Assembly: GCA_013374855.1 (NCBI GenBank)
Contig: CP055308.1
Location: forward strand, 725,310-789,309
Reading direction: 5' to 3'
DNA: 64,000 nt
Source: Candidatus Woesebacteria bacterium
Lineage (GTDB): Bacteria; Patescibacteriota; Microgenomatia; UBA8517
A program made the translations under genes and the position numbers. Shown piece by piece: positions 47,214 to 63,038 of this stretch. The stretch's first letter is position 1. The number at the start of each line of letters is the position of its first letter. The notes under the pieces were generated by a model. That model did not search any database. It was not told the origin of the DNA and saw only the letters and a program-made list of their open reading frames with translations.

Positions 47214-48317
47214 CTATCTACCTACCAAAAACTCAATCACATCCCCATCCGAAACTATATAATCTTTCCCTTCACTTCTTACCTTGCCTGCATCACGCGC
47301 TGCTTTCCAACCTCCAAAACTGACAAATGTTTTAAAATCAACTACATCTGCCTTTATAAACTTCTGACAAAAATCAGAATGAATTACAGAAGCCGCCTCC
47401 TGTGCATTGGTACCACTTTTGATAGTCCAAGCACGCACCTCTTTAACCCCTGCCGTTAAAAAGCTAATAAGGCCCAAGGTTGAAAAAGCTTTTCTAATAA
47501 GCCTCTCCAACCCAAGTTGTGAAATTCCAAGTGAAGCTAAATATTCTTTCTGTTCTTGCTCCGAAAGCCCTGCTAACTCACTTTCAACTTTTGCTGAAAC
47601 ACAAATAACTTGATCCTCTTTTAAGTTTAGCCTTTCTGAAAAATAAGAAGACACCTCATCTGCCCTTTTAAGATCCTCTTCATCCACGTTCAAAACAATA
47701 ATTACAGGCTTGGCAGTCAAAAGCCCCAACATTTTTGATAATCTTACCTCATCATCCTTTAAATCAAGACTTCTAACAGGTATTCCTTTAGCAAGAGCTT
47801 CTTTAAACCTACAAATAATTTCCCAGTTGCGTTTTGCTTCTTTATCAGGAGTATTACCCGGATCTTTTTGCTTTTCCAAAGTTTGAAGATCAGAAAGTGC
47901 TAGCTCTGTCTCAACAACCAGAAAATCATCCTGAGGCGAAACAGAACCTTCCTTAACTACAGAAGGATCAGAAAAGACACGAATCACATGGCAAATAGCT
48001 GAAGTTTCCCTAATATGGGCTAAAAATTTATTACCCAACCCTTCCCCTTTTGAAGCACCAGCAATAAGCCCGGCAATATCTACAAACTCAACAGTCGAAG
48101 GAGCAATAGGTGGCAAGTAAGATAAATTTTCTTCTTTTTGAACCACTTCAGCGAGTTTGATCAGTCGGTAATCAGGCACCGGCACTACTCCAATATTTGG
48201 TTCAATAGTAGCAAAAGGAAAATTGGCAACATAAGCCTGCTGCTTTTTAAGAAGAGCGTTAAAAAGAGTGCTTTTACCTACATTCGGCAGTCCAACTATT
48301 CCGACCGATAGGTTCAT
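47214..48317 (-). CDS. ychF: ribosome-binding ATPase YchF
   Basis: MNLSVGIVGLPNVGKSTLFNAL P-loop, and a C-terminal TGS domain. Confidence 0.9.
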   Translation of the reverse strand: MNLSVGIVGLPNVGKSTLFNALLKKQQAYVANFPFATIEPNIGVVPVPDYRLIKLAEVVQKEENLSYLPPIAPSTVEFVDIAGLIAGASKGEGLGNKFLAHIRETSAICHVIRVFSDPSVVKEGSVSPQDDFLVVETELALSDLQTLEKQKDPGNTPDKEAKRNWEIICRFKEALAKGIPVRSLDLKDDEVRLSKMLGLLTAKPVIIVLNVDEEDLKRADEVSSYFSERLNLKEDQVICVSAKVESELAGLSEQEQKEYLASLGISQLGLERLIRKAFSTLGLISFLTAGVKEVRAWTIKSGTNAQEAASVIHSDFCQKFIKADVVDFKTFVSFGGWKAARDAGKVRSEGKDYIVSDGDVIEFLVGR

Positions 48318-49950
48318 GTCCCAACTTTTCGGTGGAAGTCAGAGCCAGTTGTGGTAGTGGTATGTGACATAAGACTTCTACCTCACTCCTTTCTTTTATA
48401 ATTACTTTCTCTATTATATCTCGAATGAAGTTCTTTTTGTCATACAACTTAAGGCTTTTGAGAGTCTTTCTTGCTTCAGCACATAATTCATCAGCCTCAA
48501 TGTTGACTACTTCGGGTGAGACTCTGGCTTTTAGCTCCTCTAATTGCCTTTGATATCCCTCTTTCTTTCGTCTGGCTGCCCTTACTAACTCCATATACTG
48601 GTCAAACTCCATCACACCTGAACCATAGGCTTTGGCGTAGCGATTGATTTCTTCTGTCAGTTTGTCGATTTGCTCCTGAATCTTTAATCTCTCTTGGGTA
48701 TCTGCTGATCGGTTTGCCTGTTCTCGAATCCATTCCTCAGCGTGCTTTTTAAGGAGCTCTGAATTAGTTAAATGGTTTGTCAATTCTTTCCAGACCAATG
48801 CGTCTAAAACTCTGGCATTTACCCCTCCAATGTGGCAACGGCGTTGTTCTTTGGGAAAATGGTGTAATCTTTCTTCACAGCGGTAGTAGTAGTGTCCGTT
48901 TCTGTTACAACCATCTCCTGCCCTACGGTTACCACATCCACACCACAATACCTCTGAGAGAAGATAATCAAACTTTCTGTGCTTCTTAGCATATCTTCGG
49001 TTGTATTCCATAATCTCTTGGGCTTTATCGTATAAAAATCTGTCCTCCATAATTATCGGCACCTTGAAGGGATACCACTCCTCTTTGGGTCGAAGGCGAC
49101 GGCTATTTTTCTTTACTTTACGATATTTATCATTTTTAATCCTAGTTTTAGACTCTACAGCCTCATGCTTATTGTAATAAGCGATTCCTGTCCAGTAGGT
49201 TTCGCAACGAAGCATTCTTGTTATCGAACCTTTCGTCCAAAAATCACTTCTTCTTTTCCTAGGCTTAATACCCAAATCGTATAAACGCCTAATAATACCG
49301 TTTATGGATACTCTTTCGATCACAAACCAGTCAAAAACTAATTTTATTGTCCGTATTTCTTCTTCGTTTCTCTCCCAGTGAGCAGGCGTGGTATCGGTTC
49401 TCTTAACATAGTTGTAGCCATACAAGGCACTCCCGCTTATGACAACGCCGTTTTTAGCTTTGTAGAGTTTACCTCTCCTGAAGCGCTCGGCTATCTTTAC
49501 CCTCTCATAATCATGGAAACAGCCCAACACATTTCTCATAAGACCTTGTTCTTCATTTATTGGATTAATATCGTGGAGGGAAATAACTTTGATCCCCGCT
49601 TCTTCAAATTCTCTAAGGAGAACAAGCTGATATGTAAAATCCCTCGATAGACGACCAATATCATAAACATACAGGACTTGAATTTCCTGTCTTTTAATTG
49701 AGTCACGAAGTGCGTCTAAACCTGGTCGAGCCAACATCGTGCCTGTCCAGCCATCATCCAAGAACATGTGCTTATCTGAGAGAATGTTGCCGTCAGCCTT
49801 AATTCGATTTTTAATCTCATCGACTTGTGACTCTATCGTTTGCTCGTTCTCTTGCCTTCCAGTTGAAACTCTGGCATAAAGCCCCGTAACTAGCGGTTGC
49901 TTGGTTTGACCGTTTCCTGTATGCTGTGTGTTAGGCAGTAAATCTTCCAT
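48274..49950 (-). CDS. large serine recombinase (resolvase/invertase N-domain plus recombinase domain plus zinc ribbon/coiled coil)
   Basis: LYARVSTGRQ...IESQ (catalytic Ser region), ..YVYDIGRLSRD.., then a C-terminal Cys cluster (CGCGNRRAGDGCNRNGHYYYRC) and coiled coil. Confidence 0.85.
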   Translation of the reverse strand: MEDLLPNTQHTGNGQTKQPLVTGLYARVSTGRQENEQTIESQVDEIKNRIKADGNILSDKHMFLDDGWTGTMLARPGLDALRDSIKRQEIQVLYVYDIGRLSRDFTYQLVLLREFEEAGIKVISLHDINPINEEQGLMRNVLGCFHDYERVKIAERFRRGKLYKAKNGVVISGSALYGYNYVKRTDTTPAHWERNEEEIRTIKLVFDWFVIERVSINGIIRRLYDLGIKPRKRRSDFWTKGSITRMLRCETYWTGIAYYNKHEAVESKTRIKNDKYRKVKKNSRRLRPKEEWYPFKVPIIMEDRFLYDKAQEIMEYNRRYAKKHRKFDYLLSEVLWCGCGNRRAGDGCNRNGHYYYRCEERLHHFPKEQRRCHIGGVNARVLDALVWKELTNHLTNSELLKKHAEEWIREQANRSADTQERLKIQEQIDKLTEEINRYAKAYGSGVMEFDQYMELVRAARRKKEGYQRQLEELKARVSPEVVNIEADELCAEARKTLKSLKLYDKKNFIRDIIEKVIIKERSEVEVLCHIPLPQLALTSTEKLGHEPIGRNSWTAECR

Positions 49951-51977: not shown

Positions 51978-52449
51978 AAAAAGGACTGCATTACTACAGC
52001 TACACTGCCATTTCTTGCGTGTTGCTATCGTGCAGTCCGTCTATTGCGTTCGATTATGTCTGAAAACCTCTTGCAGGAAAAAAGAGGATTTGCCCTTGGC
52101 ATTCCGAAGATCCTGCTGCATGCCCTTATTGCGAGTTGCTTTCGTGCGTTCTTGCTTTCCGAGTCCTATCGTTTGCGAATTTCAACTTAAGGCAGTTGTG
52201 CCTTAGTAGCTATATTTTTACAAAATTCCTATCTTCTTGTCAAGAGTTTCTTGATTAAAAATGTAGTAAGAAAGTCTCCAAATTGATACAATATAAGTAT
52301 AAAGCCTAAACCCCTTCTGGGGCATGGCTAAGAAAACCCATCACAGGCGGTAAGCTCCTCGTCAGAGCACCTGTGATGGGTCATATCCCGAAAGGGGTAT
52401 GGGTAGTCGAAAGGCTATCGCTGGCGGGGAGCTTTTTGTTTCCCTTGAT

Positions 52450-52497: not shown

Positions 52498-53166
52498 ATG
52501 ACAATGAAAATAAAAAATAAGGCTCGTATTATCGCTCCGTTTCTGTTTGTTGCCCTCCTGTTATTGGCTGGTGGTCTGTATTGGTATAAGTCATCCCAGG
52601 ACAGGTTTGCTGCTCCTCGTAAAGATGCTCCGATGGTTAAATTTCGAGTTGATAAACAAAATACCCTCATGGCGGTTACTGGCAATCTTGTCTACTACGG
52701 CTTTGTTAAAGATGAGGAAGCACTCAAATATGCTCTGGAATACACCAAAGACAATACTCCTGGTAAGCCTGGGGCAATCAAGGTGGGCAACAACACCATC
52801 GATACCGAGACCGTCTATGATATTTCTCAATCAATGAACGCCTGGGAGATTGCCCGAATTCTTCTTAATGAAGGCACGCCCAGTGTCAGGGATTGCGATC
52901 ATGGTTGTGAAGAATATAACCCCTTTACTCCAGCCCTTCTGCCTGGAGGAGATATTGCTCCTACTTGGCAAGAGCGTATGCGGGCTAAATATAGCTGGGT
53001 AAAAAACTATGATGACTGTCTTAAAGCTATTGGTCATGATGGGGGTCAAGTAACTTCTGAGGAGGCTTCCAAGCGCACTGGTCACCCAAGAGTGTGTAAT
53101 ACAGCAGACGGTCGTTATTTTATTCAAGGAAAAGAAGGCTGGAGTGATTATCCGCCTTACCCGTAA
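52498..53166 (+). CDS. hypothetical exported protein (signal anchor; Cys-containing)
   Basis: MTMKIKNKARIIAPFLFVALLLLAGGLYW signal anchor, and ..CDHGCEEY.. in the body. Confidence 0.4.
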   Translation: MTMKIKNKARIIAPFLFVALLLLAGGLYWYKSSQDRFAAPRKDAPMVKFRVDKQNTLMAVTGNLVYYGFVKDEEALKYALEYTKDNTPGKPGAIKVGNNTIDTETVYDISQSMNAWEIARILLNEGTPSVRDCDHGCEEYNPFTPALLPGGDIAPTWQERMRAKYSWVKNYDDCLKAIGHDGGQVTSEEASKRTGHPRVCNTADGRYFIQGKEGWSDYPPYP

Positions 53167-53179
53167 AGGAGGTGAGAAT

Positions 53180-53890
53180 ATGAAGATAAAAATTGTCATT
53201 GCACTACTGGTTATTGCCATTTTGGGAGGTGTTTTTGTTTGGTCAAGACAAAGTAGCAAGACCGCTTTATTACCATCAAAACAAACAACTGATGTAACAA
53301 CCCAGGAAGAGACGGTTATCCGTAATTTCATGGCAGAGCCTAACCTCAAGCTGTCTTTTGTTAAGACTGATTTACCGTTTCCAAATTACTTCAGGGTCGG
53401 TAAAGTCACTCAGGTAAATGGTGGTGAGAATATGGAGGCGGTAGAGGAGTGGACACGCCAGGTTAATGTTTATCGCCAAAAGGAATTACTTAATGGACAA
53501 TGCTCGGTTTATGAGTATCACATTGATCCCAGAAGTCATTCCTTGGTAGCAGTTGTCGTTGCGGGGTTAAAGCCTAATGAAATTGAGGCATACAAGGTAA
53601 AGGGTATTGAGTGTAAGACCGAGGTTCACAACTTGCCAGAAATATCTAAGGCAGAGGCTGAAAGTGTTGCCATGGAATATCTAAAACGAGTCTTACCCAA
53701 CTTTGACCAAATTAAAGACAGGTTTGTTTATTCCCATGGTAAAACGCACAGTTGGCTGTGGGAGGACAAAAGCTATAAACTGCCAGATGGTCTAGTGGGT
53801 AGACCTTACTCGTATCCCACGATCCGCATATCGGTAGACAACACCAAAAACATTCAGTATTGGAATACCGTCTCGTTATTCCAAAACTAA
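53180..53890 (+). CDS. hypothetical exported protein, N-terminus paralogous to the preceding gene
   Basis: MKIKIVIALLVIAILGGVFVW signal anchor. The track ORF begins at 53144. Confidence 0.4.
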   Translation: MKIKIVIALLVIAILGGVFVWSRQSSKTALLPSKQTTDVTTQEETVIRNFMAEPNLKLSFVKTDLPFPNYFRVGKVTQVNGGENMEAVEEWTRQVNVYRQKELLNGQCSVYEYHIDPRSHSLVAVVVAGLKPNEIEAYKVKGIECKTEVHNLPEISKAEAESVAMEYLKRVLPNFDQIKDRFVYSHGKTHSWLWEDKSYKLPDGLVGRPYSYPTIRISVDNTKNIQYWNTVSLFQN

Positions 53891-53906: not shown

Positions 53907-54092
53907 TTATCATTCCTCCCATTCAACGATTTCTTGCCCGCCAGCGGTGAGGAGAGATTTTCTGGCGTGATAGACAGTAGGCTCTGGGAGGTCGGACATT
54001 CCTCCATCTACGAGCGGTAGCATCCGAATTTCTACCCTCAGTAGCCTACCAAGCTGAAACATAAAGAAAAATGGAGAAAATATCAATTCGAT

Positions 54093-54121: not shown

Positions 54122-54332
54122 ACCACTGGTTTTGACGCTCGAAATACACCCTTTATAAGGGGAAACTCTCCAGGCGAGCCCAATCAAGTATGGAGGTTTT
54201 AGGAGTCCTCCCAGAACCACTGCAGATTACCTCAACAAATCCCCAACGAGGCTGGTGAAGCTGAATAGAGGTAAAAACTATGCCACCCCAGGCACGAAAA
54301 CCCCACAGAAGGCGACACACGGGGCAACGGGG

Positions 54333-55166
54333 TTAATACAACTTAGTATTCCTTCGCAAGACTTCGTCGGCGATTTTCTGCATAAAATGCAGATCTAAAT
54401 CTATGTTAGTATAAAAATCTAAAAGTAGTGGGTAAAACACCTTTTTTGCTTGCCATGACTTCGCTCCACCGCCGTGAGCTACGGCACATCGCACATATTT
54501 ATAAAAACGGTTCACAAATCTTTTAGTCACTTTGTAACCAGCATAGACTGGTGCTCCTGTCTTAACATGCCAACCTGTTCTCTCTCTGACGGTTTTAAGG
54601 GAAACGATTTCGTTTACCAACTCTGTGTCTTTTTTCTTATACCACCCCTCAAAAAATCTCCATAACTGCAAAACTCTATAATCAATCGGTTTGCTTTCAT
54701 CACGAGCCTCTCGATAAAAATGGAGAACACGCCTGGGATTTTTCTTCTTATTTAAGAAATCAAGATTTCTGCAGAATCCGTCGCCTCCGTTAATAACTTG
54801 CGTTTTCTTCCATTCTTCTGCCTCCTCGAAGCTGCCTTCATGCAGTAACCATGTCTTTGAGTTATATTGACAGGTCACAGGGAAAGCAAAATAGGCATAG
54901 GTTTGATATTTAGCTGCGCAGGCGCTCAAAGTCATGAGCGCAAAACCATAAGCCTGTATAAGAATTTCTGATTCTTTAACTTTCCTTTTCTCTAATTCAG
55001 AAACATCCACCGCTAAACCTGAAAGATTCTGAAAACGCTCTGGGGGATTACTGCTGGGGAGATTAGAACTCGAAGTTGGATCGGCAACAAATCTTCCTCC
55101 CTGGAAACTTAGAGTTCCTTGTATACAGAGTCCCGTCCGTAAATTCTTAAAGATAACTTCGCTCAT
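54333..55166 (-). CDS. hypothetical protein with C-terminal R-x4-H motif (possible HEPN-like)
   Basis: ..KYVRCAVAHGGGAK.. It is the last gene of the five-gene cassette. No family assigned. Confidence 0.3.
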   Translation of the reverse strand: MSEVIFKNLRTGLCIQGTLSFQGGRFVADPTSSSNLPSSNPPERFQNLSGLAVDVSELEKRKVKESEILIQAYGFALMTLSACAAKYQTYAYFAFPVTCQYNSKTWLLHEGSFEEAEEWKKTQVINGGDGFCRNLDFLNKKKNPRRVLHFYREARDESKPIDYRVLQLWRFFEGWYKKKDTELVNEIVSLKTVRERTGWHVKTGAPVYAGYKVTKRFVNRFYKYVRCAVAHGGGAKSWQAKKVFYPLLLDFYTNIDLDLHFMQKIADEVLRRNTKLY

Positions 55167-55534
55167 ATTTCCTTTTTATGCTCTGTCAATTTCTGCTCTA
55201 AATCTTTGATAACTTTACCGCTTTGACTAACAAACTTTTTGTAGTAATTCTTGGTTCTGTCTATTACTTGGTGAATAAAAACTGGTTTTCCGTCTCTCCC
55301 TACTCGCTCGCCAATAAGTTGCTCATGATTCCACCTATGATCCTTTGAAAAACTATCCTTGCCCTTTTTCTTTACGCCCAATAAATCGTATGCCTTTATT
55401 GAGTCATGAAGACTAAGTCTCACAAACTTATGCCCGCATTCGAGCAGATGATCTATTCGGCTTCCCCGTCGGGTTGTCGTTTTTATTCTTCTTTCAGCAT
55501 TACAAGCTGAGCAAAAAACCTTAGCCATTTTCAT
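55163..55534 (-). CDS. small zinc-ribbon protein
   Basis: N-terminal CSAC-x19-ECGH (C-x2-C...C-x-H). Confidence 0.35.
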   Translation of the reverse strand: MKMAKVFCSACNAERRIKTTTRRGSRIDHLLECGHKFVRLSLHDSIKAYDLLGVKKKGKDSFSKDHRWNHEQLIGERVGRDGKPVFIHQVIDRTKNYYKKFVSQSGKVIKDLEQKLTEHKKEI

Positions 55535-56405
55535 TTTTGAAAACTCCAGATTGTTGTAACTTACGCACCTCTCCGAGCAGATAGTCTAAGTCCATATAAA
55601 AAGGTATCGATTTTTCCGCTCCAAGGATCAGCGCACCTCCATCAATCACAATCCCTTTGTGACTATCAAAGGTTACCTTACCGCCAGTTGCTATAAAACC
55701 TTGATCAAAATCAATCGTTCCACCACTGGAAGATCTCAAAAAAAGTTTTCCGCCGAATTTTGTATCAATAACATGACCGTCAAGATAATTTTTGATTTCT
55801 ATAATTTGTAACCTGCTGGGAGGAGTGAATTTGAGATGTAGAAAAATGTCTCTGAGGCTACCCCTAACAATTACCTCAGCGCCTTTTGTCTCCACATCCC
55901 AGCTACCAACACTTGCCATAATTTCATTTTCGACAATTTCCAGCGTTTCTCCTTTGACTGACTTGAAATAGGCACTAACCAGCGGAGGTTCGTCCTTATT
56001 TAGTTGTTTTACTGATAAAAGATCTTTTTGATCCGCTTTAAGTAAAACTCCATCGGGAGATATAAATACAATTCCTCCAAGAGCGATCTCCAACGGATAT
56101 TCCATATCTTCAAAAAGATAATGAGGTTTATTACCCTGCTTACAAAAAGGCTTACTGTCAGCAATTTTTATTCGTTTACAGCTTAATCTTTTTCTTGTAG
56201 CATCATCGTGATGTTTTGCACACAAAAGAGTTATTCCTTTGGCATTATGCTTTCTGGCTTCGCTGAAAGGAGGATCGAAGTGTTCGTATTCGCAAAACAG
56301 AGATCCACACAGCACACAGCCATAGCCACACCGTTGCCTTACCTCTCGTTTGACATTAAAAGGTATATCTCTCGATAAACCATATTTATTTACTTTCTTG
56401 GACAT
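55521..56405 (-). CDS. HNH endonuclease domain protein with Gly-rich C-terminal domain of unknown function
   Basis: ..REVRQRCGYGCVLCGSLFCEYEHFDPPFSEARKHNAKGITLLCAKHHD.. is an HNH finger. The track ORF extends to 56525; the internal Met at 56405 is the likely start. Confidence 0.6.
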   Translation of the reverse strand: MSKKVNKYGLSRDIPFNVKREVRQRCGYGCVLCGSLFCEYEHFDPPFSEARKHNAKGITLLCAKHHDDATRKRLSCKRIKIADSKPFCKQGNKPHYLFEDMEYPLEIALGGIVFISPDGVLLKADQKDLLSVKQLNKDEPPLVSAYFKSVKGETLEIVENEIMASVGSWDVETKGAEVIVRGSLRDIFLHLKFTPPSRLQIIEIKNYLDGHVIDTKFGGKLFLRSSSGGTIDFDQGFIATGGKVTFDSHKGIVIDGGALILGAEKSIPFYMDLDYLLGEVRKLQQSGVFKNENG

Positions 56406-57123
56406 ATGCGCTTTTGTGAAAGAGATTTTTAACCAAGCTGTCTGCAAATCCAAAAACTTGAAAAACCATTTCCCTGTCAACAAATCTTTTAGCAAAGCCC
56501 CAAACAATGGGATTATCCTTTGCATCTAAATCAACCTCTTTTACTTCTCTTGTTTTAATATCAAGCCTTTTTACCTTTCTGGCTGCTACATTTTTCGTTA
56601 TTTTCTTGATGTTATAATGCAAATAAGGATTTCTAATTGAGTCTTTGAAGCTAATTAACCTTTTTTCTGTTTCTTTATCAATAACACCTAATTGTTTCGC
56701 CTCATTGATAGCTGGATTAAGCTCCATGCTTTCAATCCTATCCCACTCGCTTTCTTTGTAAGTGTTCCCAAATTTCTTTCTGACAATGGCATGTTTGAGA
56801 GAAAACTCAACTAAAACAGCGCTTAGTGAGATGGCAGCTCCATAAAGTCCGAATAGAATACACTCCCGAATTTCATCATAAAGAAAGCCAATTGTAGGGA
56901 TAGCAATATCTGGCGGAGGAGAGAATTTAGTTATGTTAGCTAAGGCAATGGTTTTTCTTTGGGAAAATATCTTTTCGACAGCTTGTTCAGGAGTCAATCT
57001 TTGGGGTTCGTCAAACTTTATTCCTTGCTTCTGGAGTTCCTTTATTGTTTCTGGCTTGCTGATGATGTGGGTTGCACCCTTAGCCAGTTCAGTTAGAAGA
57101 TCATTTATGTTTTTCATAACCAT
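56386..57123 (-). CDS. DUF4145/HEPN-like protein (tentative)
   Basis: ..YDEIRECILFGLYGAAISLSAVLVEFSLKHAI.. plus ..SIRNPYLHY.. (R-N-x3-H) resemble the DUF4145/HEPN pattern, recalled from memory. Confidence 0.35.
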   Translation of the reverse strand: MVMKNINDLLTELAKGATHIISKPETIKELQKQGIKFDEPQRLTPEQAVEKIFSQRKTIALANITKFSPPPDIAIPTIGFLYDEIRECILFGLYGAAISLSAVLVEFSLKHAIVRKKFGNTYKESEWDRIESMELNPAINEAKQLGVIDKETEKRLISFKDSIRNPYLHYNIKKITKNVAARKVKRLDIKTREVKEVDLDAKDNPIVWGFAKRFVDREMVFQVFGFADSLVKNLFHKSAYVQESK

Positions 57124-57148
57124 TTACAAAATTGCCTTGGTTGTTTAA

Positions 57149-57754
57149 TTAGACACGCAGGAACAATCCCAAAACAATAAGAATTATCCCTATCATAAAT
57201 AAAATCAACTGTCCGTTTTCAATCTTTTGAGCATCCAGGTGTATAAAATTCAGAATTTTGTTTATCTGTTTCTGCCTCTTTTTAAGATCGGCATCATATT
57301 CTTTCTTAAAGCTCTCTGAGTATGAAAGTATTTCTTTTTCTGGGCTGATGTCGAGACGATAAAACTTTTCAAGAAAATCAAGCGCCTGCTTCTGCTGAAA
57401 TAAATTACTGCTTTCCTCTAATTGAATTTCAAATCGCTTTGATTCAAGACCAAAAAACAGTGAAGCTACACCCAATATCAATGACACGCCCAAACCAGCA
57501 AAACCCAGTTTTGTCAGCAGTGAAACATCAAAGTTTCCTTGTAGGGCGACAAAGATAGAAATTGTTCCACCAGAAATGGTAATTAACTGTAGTCTGAAGT
57601 TTTCGGAGTCTTTTAGCAGACTTTTATGTCTCTCAGAAATTCTTTTTAAGTCTTCAGTGACTTTATCCCTAAAATCTGATAGTGCTTTCTCACCATAGGG
57701 CTTCAGAAATTCTTCAAGATCCTTTTTAGGATTAAAGTTTTTTATATCGATCAT
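57149..57754 (-). CDS. three-TM membrane protein with cytoplasmic helical N-domain (possible effector/pore component)
   Basis: TM helices LQLITISGGTISIFVALQG, LGFAGLGVSLILGVASLFF, and C-terminal LILFMIGIILIVLGLFLRV. Confidence 0.4.
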   Translation of the reverse strand: MIDIKNFNPKKDLEEFLKPYGEKALSDFRDKVTEDLKRISERHKSLLKDSENFRLQLITISGGTISIFVALQGNFDVSLLTKLGFAGLGVSLILGVASLFFGLESKRFEIQLEESSNLFQQKQALDFLEKFYRLDISPEKEILSYSESFKKEYDADLKKRQKQINKILNFIHLDAQKIENGQLILFMIGIILIVLGLFLRV

Positions 57755-57822
57755 ACTTATTTTTTACAAAAACTGCCCAATTAAGGGCAGTTAAACCAGT
57801 AATCTTTGAGAGAAGTATCTGA

Positions 57823-59604
57823 TTACACCTCTTTTGTAACCAGAACTTCTTCTCCTAACATGTCAATGACTTTGACTGCCACTTTGGTTGGTTTTTCGCT
57901 TATTTCAAGCTCATATTCGCCCTTAACCAAATCGTTCTGTTTTTCTGGGACATCCGAGAAACCAATCTTGAATACTTCACCGTCATAATTTGTATCAACC
58001 AACACTACATCGATCATTGATCTGAGATCTGGGATTTTTTTCTGCAAAAGTCCTGGTTCAAGCTCTAAGCGTTTAATGATTGTAGGGGAGATAAAGGATG
58101 TGATTTTAATCTTTACTTTGTCTTTGCCTATTCGCTTGATTTCTACTTCCGCTTTTGATGGTTCGTAACTTACAAAATTCTTGTCTTTGAGGTCAAAGAT
58201 AATAAACTGACGCATGCGTTTCTTGGTTCTGGTGTCTTTATAAGGCTGTTTTTTATTCCATTCTTCAATCCAAGCATCTACCTTTGTCTCCCGACCAAGT
58301 GAGATAACCACCACATCTCTATCCTCGTCTGGGCGCTTATTGAGCTCGTCAACGATTAGCTGGAGGTCAAGTAGGGTTAAGGGATGATTAAAATCTATAA
58401 TTTTTACCAGTTCACCACTATCCCGCAAACCGTCAAAGAAAGTGTCCGTCTTAACCTTAGTAATTCCATATTGCTGGATTGCCAGTTCCTTTGCTTCAGT
58501 TTTTAAGATTCTCAAATCGTAGTTATTAACCTTGTAAATGGCGAAGGTAGGATATTTTGTTTCCTTTTGACCCTTGATAATTTTTTGTAGCCTTTTACTT
58601 GTAACCTGAATTGCCCCCTTATTTACATCAACCCCAATCCAGCGTCTGCCCAGTTTTTGAGCAGCAGCACAAGTTGTTCCAGAACCCATAAAACAGTCCA
58701 GAATCAAATCATCTTCATCCGAAGAAGCCAGGATTACTTTTTCCAAAAGCCTTTCTGGCTTTTGAGTTGCATAATCTGTTCTTTCCAAAGCCATCGCATT
58801 TATAGCTGGTATCCTCCACACATCGGTTGGTAGTCTTAAATCGTTTTTAGCTCTGGTAGCTGATTCAACACCCGTAGCCAATCTTCTCAACACTTCTTCT
58901 CCTCGTTTCTCCAAAATATTCTGAGGGTTAAAGGTGAAGTTAGCACTTTTTGTGTAAAACAATATATTATCGTGTTTTTTACCATACTCATTTTTACTTA
59001 CCCCGCCCGTTTCGTAATTCCAAACAATTTCGGCTTTTAACCCATCTTCGCCAAACACTTCGTCCATTAAAACCTTGATGTAATGCACCATCCTATAATC
59101 CAAGTGAACATAAATACTGCCTGTTTCTGCCAGCAATTCTTTCAATAAAATTAACCGCTCATACATAAACTGGAAGTATTCGTCCCTTTTCCAAATATCT
59201 TCATACATTGTCTGCTGAATGATCGATTCGCTGTCTTCTTCGATCCTGCCTAAATCTTTTAATCCCCGCAGTTCAACTTTTCTCATGTAGTCTTTGTTGC
59301 TGGCAAATGGAGGATCGATATAAATAAGGTCAACTTTACCTCTAAATCCAAGTTCTAAGAGTGTTGCTAAAACTTCTTTGTTATCTCCATGAAATAAGAG
59401 ATTGTGCCAATTTTTTTCAAGCTCTTTGTATTCTGGAATTTTGATTATTTTATTTGTCTGTTTTGGATCAAATGCTTCAATTAGCTGTGTCGGGTAACCT
59501 TGAACTTCTTCAATCGGTTTTTTACCAACCCAGTGGAGCATTGGTCTGCCTTTTGGCGTCGTGATTTTTAGCTTTTTAGCGCTATCTTTCATACCCTTTG
59601 ACAA
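57823..59604 (-). CDS. mod: Type III restriction-modification DNA methyltransferase (Mod), beta-class N6-adenine/N4-cytosine MTase
   Basis: Motif IV DPPF (LIYIDPPFASNKDY) precedes motif I (LDCFMGSGTTCAAAQ), with a variable region between, as in Type III Mod. Confidence 0.8.
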   Translation of the reverse strand: MSKGMKDSAKKLKITTPKGRPMLHWVGKKPIEEVQGYPTQLIEAFDPKQTNKIIKIPEYKELEKNWHNLLFHGDNKEVLATLLELGFRGKVDLIYIDPPFASNKDYMRKVELRGLKDLGRIEEDSESIIQQTMYEDIWKRDEYFQFMYERLILLKELLAETGSIYVHLDYRMVHYIKVLMDEVFGEDGLKAEIVWNYETGGVSKNEYGKKHDNILFYTKSANFTFNPQNILEKRGEEVLRRLATGVESATRAKNDLRLPTDVWRIPAINAMALERTDYATQKPERLLEKVILASSDEDDLILDCFMGSGTTCAAAQKLGRRWIGVDVNKGAIQVTSKRLQKIIKGQKETKYPTFAIYKVNNYDLRILKTEAKELAIQQYGITKVKTDTFFDGLRDSGELVKIIDFNHPLTLLDLQLIVDELNKRPDEDRDVVVISLGRETKVDAWIEEWNKKQPYKDTRTKKRMRQFIIFDLKDKNFVSYEPSKAEVEIKRIGKDKVKIKITSFISPTIIKRLELEPGLLQKKIPDLRSMIDVVLVDTNYDGEVFKIGFSDVPEKQNDLVKGEYELEISEKPTKVAVKVIDMLGEEVLVTKEV

Positions 59605-59682: not shown

Positions 59683-60459
59683 TTACGGCAAAACTTTGTA
59701 ACTTTCTATTTTTGTATAAAACTTCTTTTTCTTATCTCCTGTCTGCGGGTGAACAGCGAACAGTTTATGATTAAATACATTTAAGATATTTTTGTCGTAA
59801 TAAGACAGATCCTCGTTTGGTTTATCAAGAAATTTTACCTTGGCGCCATAAGCTAAAAGATCAGCTATTTGCTCTTCGATATCAAAATTTTTCTTCGTGA
59901 CAAATGAAATTTCAGTTAAGTGTTCTTGGACCTTTTCGTAAGAAATTCCAATATCTGATATTCCCGCTGATAAATAAAAACCGGCAGTTTTATGATAAAT
60001 AAAATCTCTTTCTGTTGAAGCGGATTCAATTACCAATCTTCCTCGGCTGTTAGTGGCAAGAAGAGCAAGGATAAAATTTTTAATCATTATATTGGCTGTT
60101 TCTTTATAAACTTTTTGGCTATTCCAATTCTTTTTTGTCGCTTTTTTGTTGTCTACGATGACTGTAAATATTTGATAGCTGCCTTTATTTAGGAAATCAA
60201 ATAAAAGTTTCTTAAAGTTTTTGTCTATTTCCTTGTCTTTAAGAATAGAGAAATCACCCATTTGTCTTCCAATTTCTCTTGAATGAAAAACAATATCGGT
60301 TTTCTCCCAAAACTTAAATTTAATTTGATCAGATTTTACCTTCAACAACTCTCGATTATCATCGTTTATCAAACAACCGCATAATATATAACAACCGTTT
60401 TTATTAGCCTTTGGGTTAGCAAAACCAGATTCGTCAATAAAAAGATTTTGTAATTTCAT
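59683..60459 (-). CDS. DUF3800-family protein embedded between res and mod
   Basis: The N-terminal LFIDESGFAN motif is characteristic of DUF3800, and the length of about 258 aa fits. Confidence 0.55.
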   Translation of the reverse strand: MKLQNLFIDESGFANPKANKNGCYILCGCLINDDNRELLKVKSDQIKFKFWEKTDIVFHSREIGRQMGDFSILKDKEIDKNFKKLLFDFLNKGSYQIFTVIVDNKKATKKNWNSQKVYKETANIMIKNFILALLATNSRGRLVIESASTERDFIYHKTAGFYLSAGISDIGISYEKVQEHLTEISFVTKKNFDIEEQIADLLAYGAKVKFLDKPNEDLSYYDKNILNVFNHKLFAVHPQTGDKKKKFYTKIESYKVLP

Positions 60460-63038
60460 TTTTGTTTGTAAATCCAGTCAATGACCGGTTGAACTTTACC
60501 AAATACCGATTCTCCTTCCTCTAAAAGCAGAAGTTCATACTTAATTTTATCAGGATTTATCGTTTCCAACTTTTTCATCTCTTTTTCAGCCTCTTTAATC
60601 CTATATTTTGGCGCTTTTACCTCTACAATTAAGGACTTGCCATCTTTCTTGCGAATCAAAAAGTCAGGTGTATAACTGTGCCAATCTCCTTTGTCGTCTT
60701 TGTATTCAAAGATAAAATCAGTTTTTTCTGGATCGTTAATTGCACCTGTATAATAAATGTCCTCAACATTATCGGGGTCTTCACCGAGTTTAGTAAGCAT
60801 TCGCTCAAAAAACTCCCGTTCGTCCTCCGAATCAAAGTTATACGGATCATAATGAAAGCCAAAGAGCGGCAGCTGCCCAGTTTGATGTTGATATTTTTCT
60901 ATACTCAAAACGTAATCATCAAGTTTACTTTTATTTACCCTTATTTCAGTTGTCCAAATTTCTTCTTTATTTTTTTCTTCTTTAACAAAACCCTTCTTTT
61001 TAACGATTGCTATTGCTTCTTCAACGGTTTCATTAACTACCTTATAGCGTATGCTTTGTTTTTCTATTTGCGAGCGGATAAGTTCCAGCTCAAACGCTCC
61101 GATTTCACCCTCTGGGTATAAGCCTTCAAGCAGTTTATAAGTTTTGAGCGAGTCTAAACGGTAGGCATGAGCCAGAACTACGGCTGCTTGAAATAAATCA
61201 ATCTTCCTGTCTGTTACCACTCCCTTTTTAGTTCCCACTTCAACTAAAACCCCTTTTCTTTGAGCTTTGGACATGGAGTAAAGAGTCTTTTCAAAGGATT
61301 TGACTGCCCGTTCCTCTGGTTTATTGATTTTTATGCCTTCCGCAGCTTTTAAATCTTCTGGGACTATCTTTTGGACGAGCTTTTTGATTAGTAGCGGTTC
61401 AGGTGTGGTTTTTTTAAGAGTTACTTTAACTGTTACGGTGTCGGCAGAGACCCTGTTAAGATCATCTAGACCCTCACCAAAGGTTTCTTGCAACTGCCGA
61501 TCAAGAATGGAGACATTGTCTTTTGAGAGGTAAATCTTGGCTTTTTTGGTGTTGTTGGGAACTTGTCTCAAACAGCGGCTGGCAGCTTGTAAAACAAAGT
61601 TATTGCTCGAAGTGAGTTTCCTTGCCAGGGCTGTAGCAAATAAAGATAAGCAGTTCCATCCTTCCGTGCCTTTGTTAACAAGTAAGAAGACCCTGTAGGG
61701 CAGTTTAGGGTCGTTAATGCGGTTGTCAAAAAGGTCTTTGACCTCGTCAGTTGACTTGTTATGCACTGGCAGGACAACTGATGGGTCAATTTTTAGAGAG
61801 ATGAGAGTTTGCTCGACTACTGGTTGAGCTTTTTCCAAATCACCGATCTGGGGGAAGTAAATTGCCAGCTTTGCATATTCGCCGCTCCCAACTCGGACAT
61901 CTTTGTATTCCTGAAAGAAATCTTTGACAACATCAACAATAAAATCCTTATCCGAGACTTCTGGATAAGCCATGATATTGCCTCTAACTTCCTTGAGAAT
62001 GCCGTCTTCAATGCCCTGGGACAAGCCATACCAGTAAATAACATCCCGTAGAAGCTGTCTTTGGTAGTAAGGCGTGCCTGTGGTGTTCACTACGGCTAAG
62101 AGATTGGTCTTCTCGGCAATGTAGTTGATTGTCTGCCTAACTCGCTTCAGGTCGCTTGCCAGCTCTTGCCCATAGGTGTGGTGAGCCTCATCCGAGAAAA
62201 CGGCTAAGTGAGGCAGAGAGGTGATGGTTTGTAGCCTTAAATTAGCTACCAGCTCTTTTGCTTCTTCAACTTCCAGTTTCAACTGCCCAGAGAGAAGGGT
62301 TTTGGGGATGCTGTTTTTTTGAAGTCGTATTTTCTCGGTGTTGGTGACGATGACATTAAATGAGCTGCCTCGAATAACAGGAATGTCTTTTTCACCATCT
62401 CTGGTGTAGGTGAACTTAACATTGATAATAAAAGATTTATAAAAACGGGGAGGAAGTATCTTGTCATAGGGAGTATCTGAGATTTCTCTCAAAGCACCTA
62501 AAATGGTTTTTCCAGGCGCAAATACCAGGGCATTTTTGATAAAGATGCCGTCTTCATCCTGATATTCCAAAGCCATCGCAAACTCACTAGCAATGATGGA
62601 AGCAATCAGGATTGTCTTACCCGCTCCCATTGCCAGTGCCAGGATATAACTTGGGTATGAGAGAGTGAGCGTCTCCCTTAGTGCTTCGAGTTTATATTTC
62701 TTAACAAAGGTATTATCAGTTTTTACCTTTTCGAAGATTGCGTCTATTCCGCCTCCAGCTAGTAATAGGTCGGTTAGATCTTCCTCTGACAGGGAGATCC
62801 CAAGAGCTTTCAGGAGATCCCTACCTTGGAAGTATTCTTTATAAAGCTCGAAGATGTTGGGAGTGTTTTTAACCAGTCTCAAATACCAGTAAGTTTCTAA
62901 TGCCTCAAATTGTGCTTTTCTTAGGAAGTTGTTCTGATTGTGTTGGAGGATGGTGGCGATGGCAGGGTAAGAAGAAGGGTATCCTTGCTGTCTCCAGTTA
63001 GTGACATCTAATTTTAACTTTTGGTAAAGATTGGTCAT
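60456..63038 (-). CDS. res: Type III restriction enzyme Res subunit (SF2 DEAH helicase plus C-terminal PD-(D/E)xK nuclease)
   Basis: Walker A MGAGKTIL, DEAH box (VFSDEAHH), and the C-terminal ..YTPDFLIRKKDGKSLIVEVKAPKY.. nuclease motif. Confidence 0.8.
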   Translation of the reverse strand: MTNLYQKLKLDVTNWRQQGYPSSYPAIATILQHNQNNFLRKAQFEALETYWYLRLVKNTPNIFELYKEYFQGRDLLKALGISLSEEDLTDLLLAGGGIDAIFEKVKTDNTFVKKYKLEALRETLTLSYPSYILALAMGAGKTILIASIIASEFAMALEYQDEDGIFIKNALVFAPGKTILGALREISDTPYDKILPPRFYKSFIINVKFTYTRDGEKDIPVIRGSSFNVIVTNTEKIRLQKNSIPKTLLSGQLKLEVEEAKELVANLRLQTITSLPHLAVFSDEAHHTYGQELASDLKRVRQTINYIAEKTNLLAVVNTTGTPYYQRQLLRDVIYWYGLSQGIEDGILKEVRGNIMAYPEVSDKDFIVDVVKDFFQEYKDVRVGSGEYAKLAIYFPQIGDLEKAQPVVEQTLISLKIDPSVVLPVHNKSTDEVKDLFDNRINDPKLPYRVFLLVNKGTEGWNCLSLFATALARKLTSSNNFVLQAASRCLRQVPNNTKKAKIYLSKDNVSILDRQLQETFGEGLDDLNRVSADTVTVKVTLKKTTPEPLLIKKLVQKIVPEDLKAAEGIKINKPEERAVKSFEKTLYSMSKAQRKGVLVEVGTKKGVVTDRKIDLFQAAVVLAHAYRLDSLKTYKLLEGLYPEGEIGAFELELIRSQIEKQSIRYKVVNETVEEAIAIVKKKGFVKEEKNKEEIWTTEIRVNKSKLDDYVLSIEKYQHQTGQLPLFGFHYDPYNFDSEDEREFFERMLTKLGEDPDNVEDIYYTGAINDPEKTDFIFEYKDDKGDWHSYTPDFLIRKKDGKSLIVEVKAPKYRIKEAEKEMKKLETINPDKIKYELLLLEEGESVFGKVQPVIDWIYKQK

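Follow-up and report, generated by a model that had tools for sequence, protein, structure and literature searches.

The stretch of DNA analysed here (the window, 64,000 nt, positions 725,310 to 789,309 of contig CP055308.1 from a Candidatus Woesebacteria bacterium) includes five adjacent minus-strand genes, here designated A to E, that lie directly downstream of a restriction-modification (R-M) operon ending in the DNA methyltransferase gene mod (Table 1). An original prediction, made from the sequence alone, treated the five as one compact and undescribed defence system carried on a mobile island. The list of open reading frames (ORFs) bears out the five genes, the gap of 68 nt between A and the end of mod at 57823, and the motifs quoted from the translations, namely SIRNPYLHY (B), CGYGCVLCGS..EYEHFDP..LLCAKHHD (C), C-x2-C...C-x-H (D) and YVRCAVAHGGG (E). 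Overlaps of 4–20 nt had been claimed between neighbours and are found at three junctions (B/C 20 nt, C/D 14 nt and D/E 4 nt), but A and B are separated by a gap of 25 nt. The longest ORF for C extends further than the version used here, to 56525 (334 aa). Because each of the five has homologues elsewhere, A to E are real genes and not chance ORFs. GC content varies from gene to gene (0.31 to 0.41). A 71-aa ORF antisense to B also looks conserved in relatives, because B itself is conserved, and is not a separate gene. The five-gene region had no DNA match in plasmids. The comparisons reported below make it likely that this stretch is the mosaic, variable cargo slot of a family of Patescibacteria genomic islands and not a single system.

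Related islands with 73–96 % protein identity to this one were compared over the region from the 3′ end of mod to E (loci are identified by L numbers), and the contents of the region differ from one to the next. In L037 and L122–L125, mod is followed by B-C-D-E at 84–94 % identity, without A, and this arrangement was recovered from at least four samples. L008/L010 carry a helix-turn-helix (HTH) gene, res, mod, A and B and then the gene for a 546-aa MauJ protein, and L009 (Woesebacteria GW2011_GWC1_42_9) carries res, the gene for a 284-aa protein, mod, A, B, a reversed HNH_5 gene and the gene for a 519-aa protein. An EcoRI-type methyltransferase (MTase), GmrSD/HNH, a mod remnant, an unrelated protein with three transmembrane (TM) helices and a kinase-like protein precede D-E in L006/L007. 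In L036, the 3′ end of mod is followed by the gene for a 304-aa PD-(D/E)xK-like protein and then E (95 % identical), with no D, and L126 includes a different mod-res pair, two small ORFs and D-E. Hence, single genes or small modules are exchanged, with breakpoints at gene starts, and the positions where DNA homology breaks off (approximately 57760, 57131, 56402–56412, 55531, 55167 and 54355–54231) are gene boundaries. B, C, D and E each occur elsewhere without the others, the exception being A, so far found only in company with B, and the 3.4-kb slot of the window consists of five separable units, A, B, C, D and E.

Across diverged genomes, the five components were not found to stay together; they are separated in L006, L008, L009, L036 and L126 and in the more distant contexts described below. 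As B-C-D-E repeats only within one close lineage, these repeats are not independent evidence of linkage. The prediction of one compact system does not withstand this comparison, as the related loci have only some of the genes (A-B, B-C-D-E, D-E or E alone), in combination with unrelated ones. The genes do not travel jointly beyond one close lineage that lacks A, which is in substance the pattern that the original prediction had itself named as counting against it. Its description of the genes as defence-island-like cargo on a mobile element is supported.

The boundaries of the slot are conserved. On the left lies mod, which is 73–82 % identical in L008, L009 and L037 and is reduced to a 31-codon 3′ remnant in L006 and L036, and a terminator-like hairpin (–17.7 kcal/mol, z = –3.4) that is kept in L006, L008, L009 and L037. 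On the right, a conserved non-coding segment of approximately 90 nt comes after whichever gene ends the slot (L008, L009, L036, L037, L038 and L126), the gene ahead of it being E, the 546-aa MauJ protein or the 519-aa protein of L009. This segment may serve as a regulatory site or as a flank for recombination. It was also considered as a structured RNA and rejected, with a folding energy of –6.4 kcal/mol and no covariation.

Table 1. Positions of the genes, slot boundaries and other features in the window and in related loci
Feature	Locus	Position	Strand	Length	Basis or remark
Gene A	Window	57149–57754	minus	201 aa	ORF
Gene B	Window	56386–57123	minus	245 aa	ORF
Gene C	Window	55521–56405	minus	294 aa, counted from MSKKV	ORF
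Gene D	Window	55163–55534	minus	123 aa	ORF
Gene E	Window	54333–55166	minus	277 aa	ORF
ORF antisense to B	Window	56933–57148	plus	71 aa	not a separate gene
mod, DNA methyltransferase, left slot flank	Window	57823–59604	minus		N6_N4_Mtase 1e-49; PADLOC MTase_III 5.7e-63
Terminator-like hairpin between mod and slot	Window	57766–57792	minus		AACTGCCC-TTAATT-GGGCAGTT, then T-run
Non-coding segment, right slot flank	Window	54233–54323	minus	~90 nt	conserved
Copy of the ~90-nt segment	L008	12359–12529			
Copy of the ~90-nt segment	L009	12912–12984			
Copy of the ~90-nt segment	L036	1842–1949			
Copy of the ~90-nt segment	L126	8827–8917			
DUF3800 gene	Window	59683–60459	minus		PF12686 1e-8
res, helicase-nuclease subunit	Window	60456–63038	minus		ResIII 2.7e-6; TnsA-like PD-(D/E)xK C-terminus
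Large serine recombinase, island end next to ychF	Window	48274–49950	minus		Resolvase, Recombinase and Zn_ribbon_recom
LOOT RNA (RF03000)	Window	52303–52419	plus		86.9 bits, gathering score 46.4
LOOT RNA (RF03000)	L009	15043–15156			
LOOT RNA (RF03000)	L038	2677–2784			
Skipping-rope RNA (RF02924)	Window	53980–54046	minus		36.7 bits
tRNA gene by MauJ-type gene	L008	12818–12893			
tRNA gene by MauJ-type gene	L036	2179–2252			
tRNA gene by MauJ-type gene	L040	696–768			
tRNA gene by MauJ-type gene	L006	11828–11900			
Three-TM protein (211 aa) and kinase-like protein	L006	8054–9636			same slot
C homologue and three preceding proteins	L001	4320–7782			51 % identity to C

HEPN domains are marked by the signatures Rx4-6H and Ex3[KR] (Anantharaman et al. 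2013, PMC3710099). Both are found in B, where E106-x3-K110 and R164-N165-x3-H169, with a polar residue after the R, are invariant in an alignment of 39 sequences, and the AlphaFold model, which is confident (pLDDT 89.8), has the four-helix up-down bundle of the HEPN fold. We are confident that B is a HEPN-fold protein, and we predict that it is a metal-independent RNase. B had been described as DUF4145/HEPN-like, and of this the HEPN part stands while DUF4145 (PF13643) does not, there being no Pfam match at E≤1; nor was any NCBIfam or PADLOC model matched. The possibility that B and E are relatives of each other was discarded when a profile comparison showed no relationship. Homologues of B fall into at least 164 representative clusters, and none was found in the IMG/VR viral contigs. 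They are present in 23 loci of species-representative genomes, and 15 of the 23 are labelled Patescibacteria, though some labels of metagenome-assembled genomes (MAGs) may be unreliable. The neighbours of B across these 23 loci are mutually unrelated, and approximately 7 of 20 contexts hold defence-type genes, which include an MTase and a Type II restriction endonuclease (REase; L020), an MTase and an HNH gene (L029), an AAA_15/21 ATPase, a GajB-like helicase, a DUF5677 protein with SEC-C and a DUF2779 protein. The B family is a solo accessory gene mainly of Patescibacteria MAGs.

C matches PHROG 6544, which has no assigned function, at 4e-51, and its homologues number 64 proteins with a further 107 relatives in IMG/VR contigs. 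Residues C30, C33, H42, H53, C62, N160 and D170 are invariant in the family and H65/H66 are present in C, so that the Cys pairs and His of a beta-beta-alpha-metal finger are in place. The family keeps this finger in the form CxxC...H...CxxC/H-H, and the HNH finger claimed for C is supported as a conserved feature. Pfam HNH (PF01844) was matched by 11 of 33 family members (best 1.8e-5) but not by the window protein at E≤1, which did match a PHROG HNH model (3e-4), and the family profile aligned weakly with the HNH domain of IscB (E 0.068). The remainder of the protein forms a conserved, beta-rich C-terminal domain that carries the invariant N160 and D170. From these sequence features, C is predicted to be a nuclease whose HNH-type zinc finger domain is N-terminal and whose beta-rich domain is C-terminal. 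It has no constant partner, and most of the family are lone genes of prophages, in more than 100 contigs. Homologues in L001 and L004 are solo, as is a relative in the early region of a Klebsiella prophage, and relatives in IMG/VR contigs lie in nin-type regions or beside integrases or serine recombinases, the latter in 15 prophage loci. The L001 homologue comes after three uncharacterised proteins (482, 447 and 196 aa), two with RNxxAHG motifs and one with a weak match to HEPN_RiboL-PSP (3.7e-4), and L001 is a second, unrelated HNH-plus-HEPN-like neighbourhood.

Residues 148–266 of E match Pfam MauJ (PF17419) at 30.0 bits, against a gathering threshold of 28 (E 1.1e-6). E has 13 homologues, and in an alignment of 14 sequences the motif R226-x4-H231 is invariant and conforms to Rx4-6H, the residue after the R being C or S and not N, D or H. 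The stretch DYRxLQxWRFFE is also invariant. The structure model is moderate (pLDDT 76) and weak in the loop after the motif. E is thus a member of the MauJ family; its N-terminal domain is alpha/beta, and its C-terminal domain, which carries R-x4-H, is probably HEPN-like. The literature searched had nothing relevant on MauJ with HEPN or with defence, and no E homologues were found in IMG/VR viral contigs. E and the 546-aa protein of L008 aligned weakly, at the RxAxAH motif only, and the link between them comes from both matching Pfam MauJ, the C-terminus of the 546-aa protein doing so at 1.7e-16.

MauJ-type genes are the genes nearest to a tRNA gene in L008, L036, L040 and L006, the tRNAs being those for Asn, Gln, Glu and Gly, which fits a position at an island edge, next to tRNA attachment sites, and E-type genes directly adjoin large serine recombinases in L032, L034 and L040. 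Homologues of E at 33–55 % identity are solo genes that lack D, their neighbours being serine recombinases, tRNA genes or a Gabija-like pair. D itself, which has an N-terminal zinc ribbon of the form given above, matched no family in the model libraries searched and is not present in the phage records searched. Its orthologues (84–87 % identical) are upstream of E in L006, L037 and L126; the 95 % identical E of L036 has no D ahead of it, and none was found before the distant homologues of E (L032, L034 and L040). Hence, D usually, though not always, precedes E.

For A, hydropathy agrees with the three-TM architecture that had been proposed, with hydrophobic helices from approximately residues 53, 77 and 178. 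The family is rare (25 representative clusters in a set of 1.84 billion proteins) and is made up of three-TM proteins of approximately 200 aa that share a conserved core, FxLQLIxISGGT..KLGF. There was no Pfam match, and A is not present in the phage records searched. It was found only together with B, in three closely related loci, and is precisely missing in L037 and L122–L125, where B comes directly after mod. As judged by these sequence comparisons, A is an optional cassette. A short repeat, TTTTGTAAA, flanks A on both sides; no mechanism is claimed for it, because repeats of similar length are frequent in the region. In L006, after the mod remnant and the hairpin, the same slot holds a 211-aa three-TM protein that precedes the kinase-like protein (NGDFNPRN...LIDWN) and is like A in architecture, with a helical N-domain, two central TM helices and a C-terminal TM helix. 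It was undetected by the hidden Markov model (HMM) of the A family and so is at most an analogue of A.

No named defence system was found for any of these genes. The original prediction could not map the set to one, and a search of PADLOC-DB 2.0 agrees, with no match at E≤1 for B to E, while PADLOC, NCBIfam and PDB sequence searches with A to E gave no system, the only PADLOC match for A being a weak one to LeoBC (2e-4).

Upstream of the slot, res is 85 % identical in L008 and L009 and matched no PADLOC REase model, including REase_III. The operon is Type III-like, and its order is res-(insert)-mod, where mod-res would be expected of a Type III R-M system. The insert is the DUF3800 gene, which is absent in L008 and replaced in L009 by the gene for an unrelated 284-aa zinc-ribbon/helical protein, and has a GC content of 0.308 compared to 0.41 for res. 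It is an insertion between res and mod and, like A, an optional cassette.

Of the island's two ends, the window contains only the one with the recombinase. There, the serine recombinase gene shares the last 44 nt of its 3′ end (48274–48317) with the annotated start of ychF, which suggests that integration of the island took place at, or within, the 5′ end of that gene. A LOOT RNA found between E and this end is also conserved in two related islands (L009 and L038) and is on that account apparently part of the island backbone. A match to skipping-rope RNA is at exactly the gathering score, and the homologous stretches in L009 and L038 stayed below the threshold. Weinberg et al. 2017 (PMC5737381) remark that skipping-rope RNAs may be linked to genes of the DUF3800 type. 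The DUF3800 gene is 5.6 kb from the match, and E and the protein encoded at 53144–53890, both considered as possible DUF3800 relatives close to the RNA, show no similarity to that family.

Taken together, the region probably follows the ordinary pattern of a defence island, an assembly of independent modules with roles in defence or addiction. In the mechanism that we propose, B and E would be latent metal-independent RNases using an R-x4-H dyad and C a Zn-dependent DNase, and each of B, C and E would act alone, as a module for abortive infection (Abi), exclusion or addiction, complementary to the R-M system next to it. The R-M system would cut incoming DNA first and, should it fail, the RNases would stop translation, by analogy with PrrC/EcoprrI. 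A may be an optional modulator of B, for example a membrane anchor or sensor, and D an optional modulator of E, for example a zinc-ribbon partner; A and D are dispensable for the persistence of their downstream neighbours, B and E. The tight spacing indicates that the genes are probably co-transcribed here, and what is co-transcribed would be an assembled array, not a co-evolved unit.

Several points weigh against the mosaic slot. The genes are tightly packed and operon-like, with the overlaps of 4–20 nt, and B-C-D-E is intact in several metagenome samples and could have a joint function within its own lineage. Some neighbourhoods of B are housekeeping ones (def, NUDIX, PolA, DnaX), and we infer the defence roles of A to E from context. 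The contexts sampled are 23 genome loci for B, approximately 10 independent ones for E and close relatives only for A and D.

One alternative is that the genes serve the mobile element, either as addiction or post-segregational-killing modules or in mobility. E, for instance, would then belong to the backbone, associated with the recombinase or with the end of the island, and C would be an HNH endonuclease of the homing type. We consider this unlikely as an account of the stretch, though it would suit the terminal position of E-type genes beside tRNA genes and directly beside large serine recombinases, as well as the C relatives beside serine recombinases in prophages, and HEPN proteins are common toxins of toxin-antitoxin modules (PMC3710099). 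However, neither B nor E has a conserved partner resembling an antitoxin, B is mostly away from recognisable mobile-element genes, and C, besides having a non-HNH domain conserved at its C-terminus, occupies typical moron positions instead of interrupting genes. Addiction and defence roles are not mutually exclusive, and an addiction or island-maintenance role, especially for E, is a live alternative.

It is also doubtful that MauJ-type proteins are a HEPN RNase clade that had gone unrecognised and serve as a fixed, PrrC-like guard in the position of last gene of Patescibacteria cargo slots, with the B family as a stand-alone Abi effector centred on Patescibacteria and B-C-D-E perhaps cooperating in the lineage that has all four. 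E and the 546-aa protein of L008 would then guard the R-M or nuclease genes loaded upstream of them. Each of these two proteins is the last gene of its slot, a place that is taken in L009 by the 519-aa protein.

Quite improbable is the proposal that all five genes, or at least B-C-D-E, constitute one operon-encoded multi-component defence system in which a membrane protein, two HEPN RNases, an HNH DNase and a zinc-ribbon adaptor cooperate. The common strand, the overlaps at three junctions, the recovery of B-C-D-E together from at least four samples and the failure of any of the five to match a named system are all in keeping with such a system. Against this, the loci that repeat the set are all of one close lineage and lack A, A-B, D-E or E are accompanied by unrelated genes in other close relatives, D is lacking beside the 95 % identical E of L036, and distant homologues of B, C and E are found without the other four genes nearby. 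That the ORFs are chance or decayed frames without function, to which the lack of any but close homologues of D on record might point, is refuted by conservation, all five having conserved homologues in which motif residues are invariant, and has a negligible likelihood.

Patescibacteria (also known as the candidate phyla radiation, CPR) have tiny genomes with few recognised defence systems. On the reading of the stretch as a mosaic cargo slot, the region shows that these bacteria have island-borne cargo slots built as in well-studied bacteria. Three uncharacterised families of candidate effectors, each open to testing one gene at a time, also emerge from it, namely the solo HEPN family of B (at least 164 clusters), MauJ and the widespread prophage HNH family PHROG 6544. 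In consequence, work on the genes should take them singly and in pairs, and not all five as a block.

Defence islands and variable cargo hotspots are found in integrative elements and prophages, the P2/P4 hotspots being an example. The slot is like such hotspots in having conserved flanks, interchangeable defence-type genes and an adjoining recombinase or tRNA gene, and unlike the known ones in its Patescibacteria host and in that its cargo belongs mostly to uncharacterised families. C is like phage HNH endonucleases and PHROG 6544 in that it has a CxxC...H...CxxH-H finger and relatives that are common in prophages, but unlike plain phage HNH endonucleases it adds a conserved beta-rich domain, and the window protein is below Pfam HNH detection. 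MauJ takes its name from a gene of unassigned function in the methylamine-utilisation cluster. E scores above the gathering threshold of this family, which the 546-aa protein in the same slot of L008 also matches, but unlike the namesake E is found in mobile-element/R-M cargo and has no mau genes nearby.

At least 16 HEPN clades have been linked to R-M systems, and in the multi-pronged defence idea HEPN RNases back up R-M, as in PrrC/EcoprrI (PMC3710099). B resembles these R-M-linked RNases in its HEPN fold, its Ex3K and RNx3H motifs and its position directly downstream of an R-M operon, and other B homologues are beside an MTase and Type II REase or an MTase and HNH gene. Unlike PrrC and RloC, B has no ABC-ATPase or other regulatory domain, and unlike the known R-M-linked clades it matches no Pfam HEPN family and most of its homologues are not beside R-M genes. 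It also differs from the solo HEPN Abi proteins and HEPN toxins (AbiV, the HEPN domain of AbiA, the HEPN-MNT toxins and HepS), as neither an MNT antitoxin nor an AbiV partner gene is present and its sequence does not place it in their families. Hence, the arrangement as such is already known, in the defence island with interchangeable cargo, the HEPN gene next to R-M and the HNH morons of prophages; what is new here is an unnamed, Patescibacteria-centred HEPN family, the uncharacterised PHROG 6544 and the reading of MauJ as HEPN-like.

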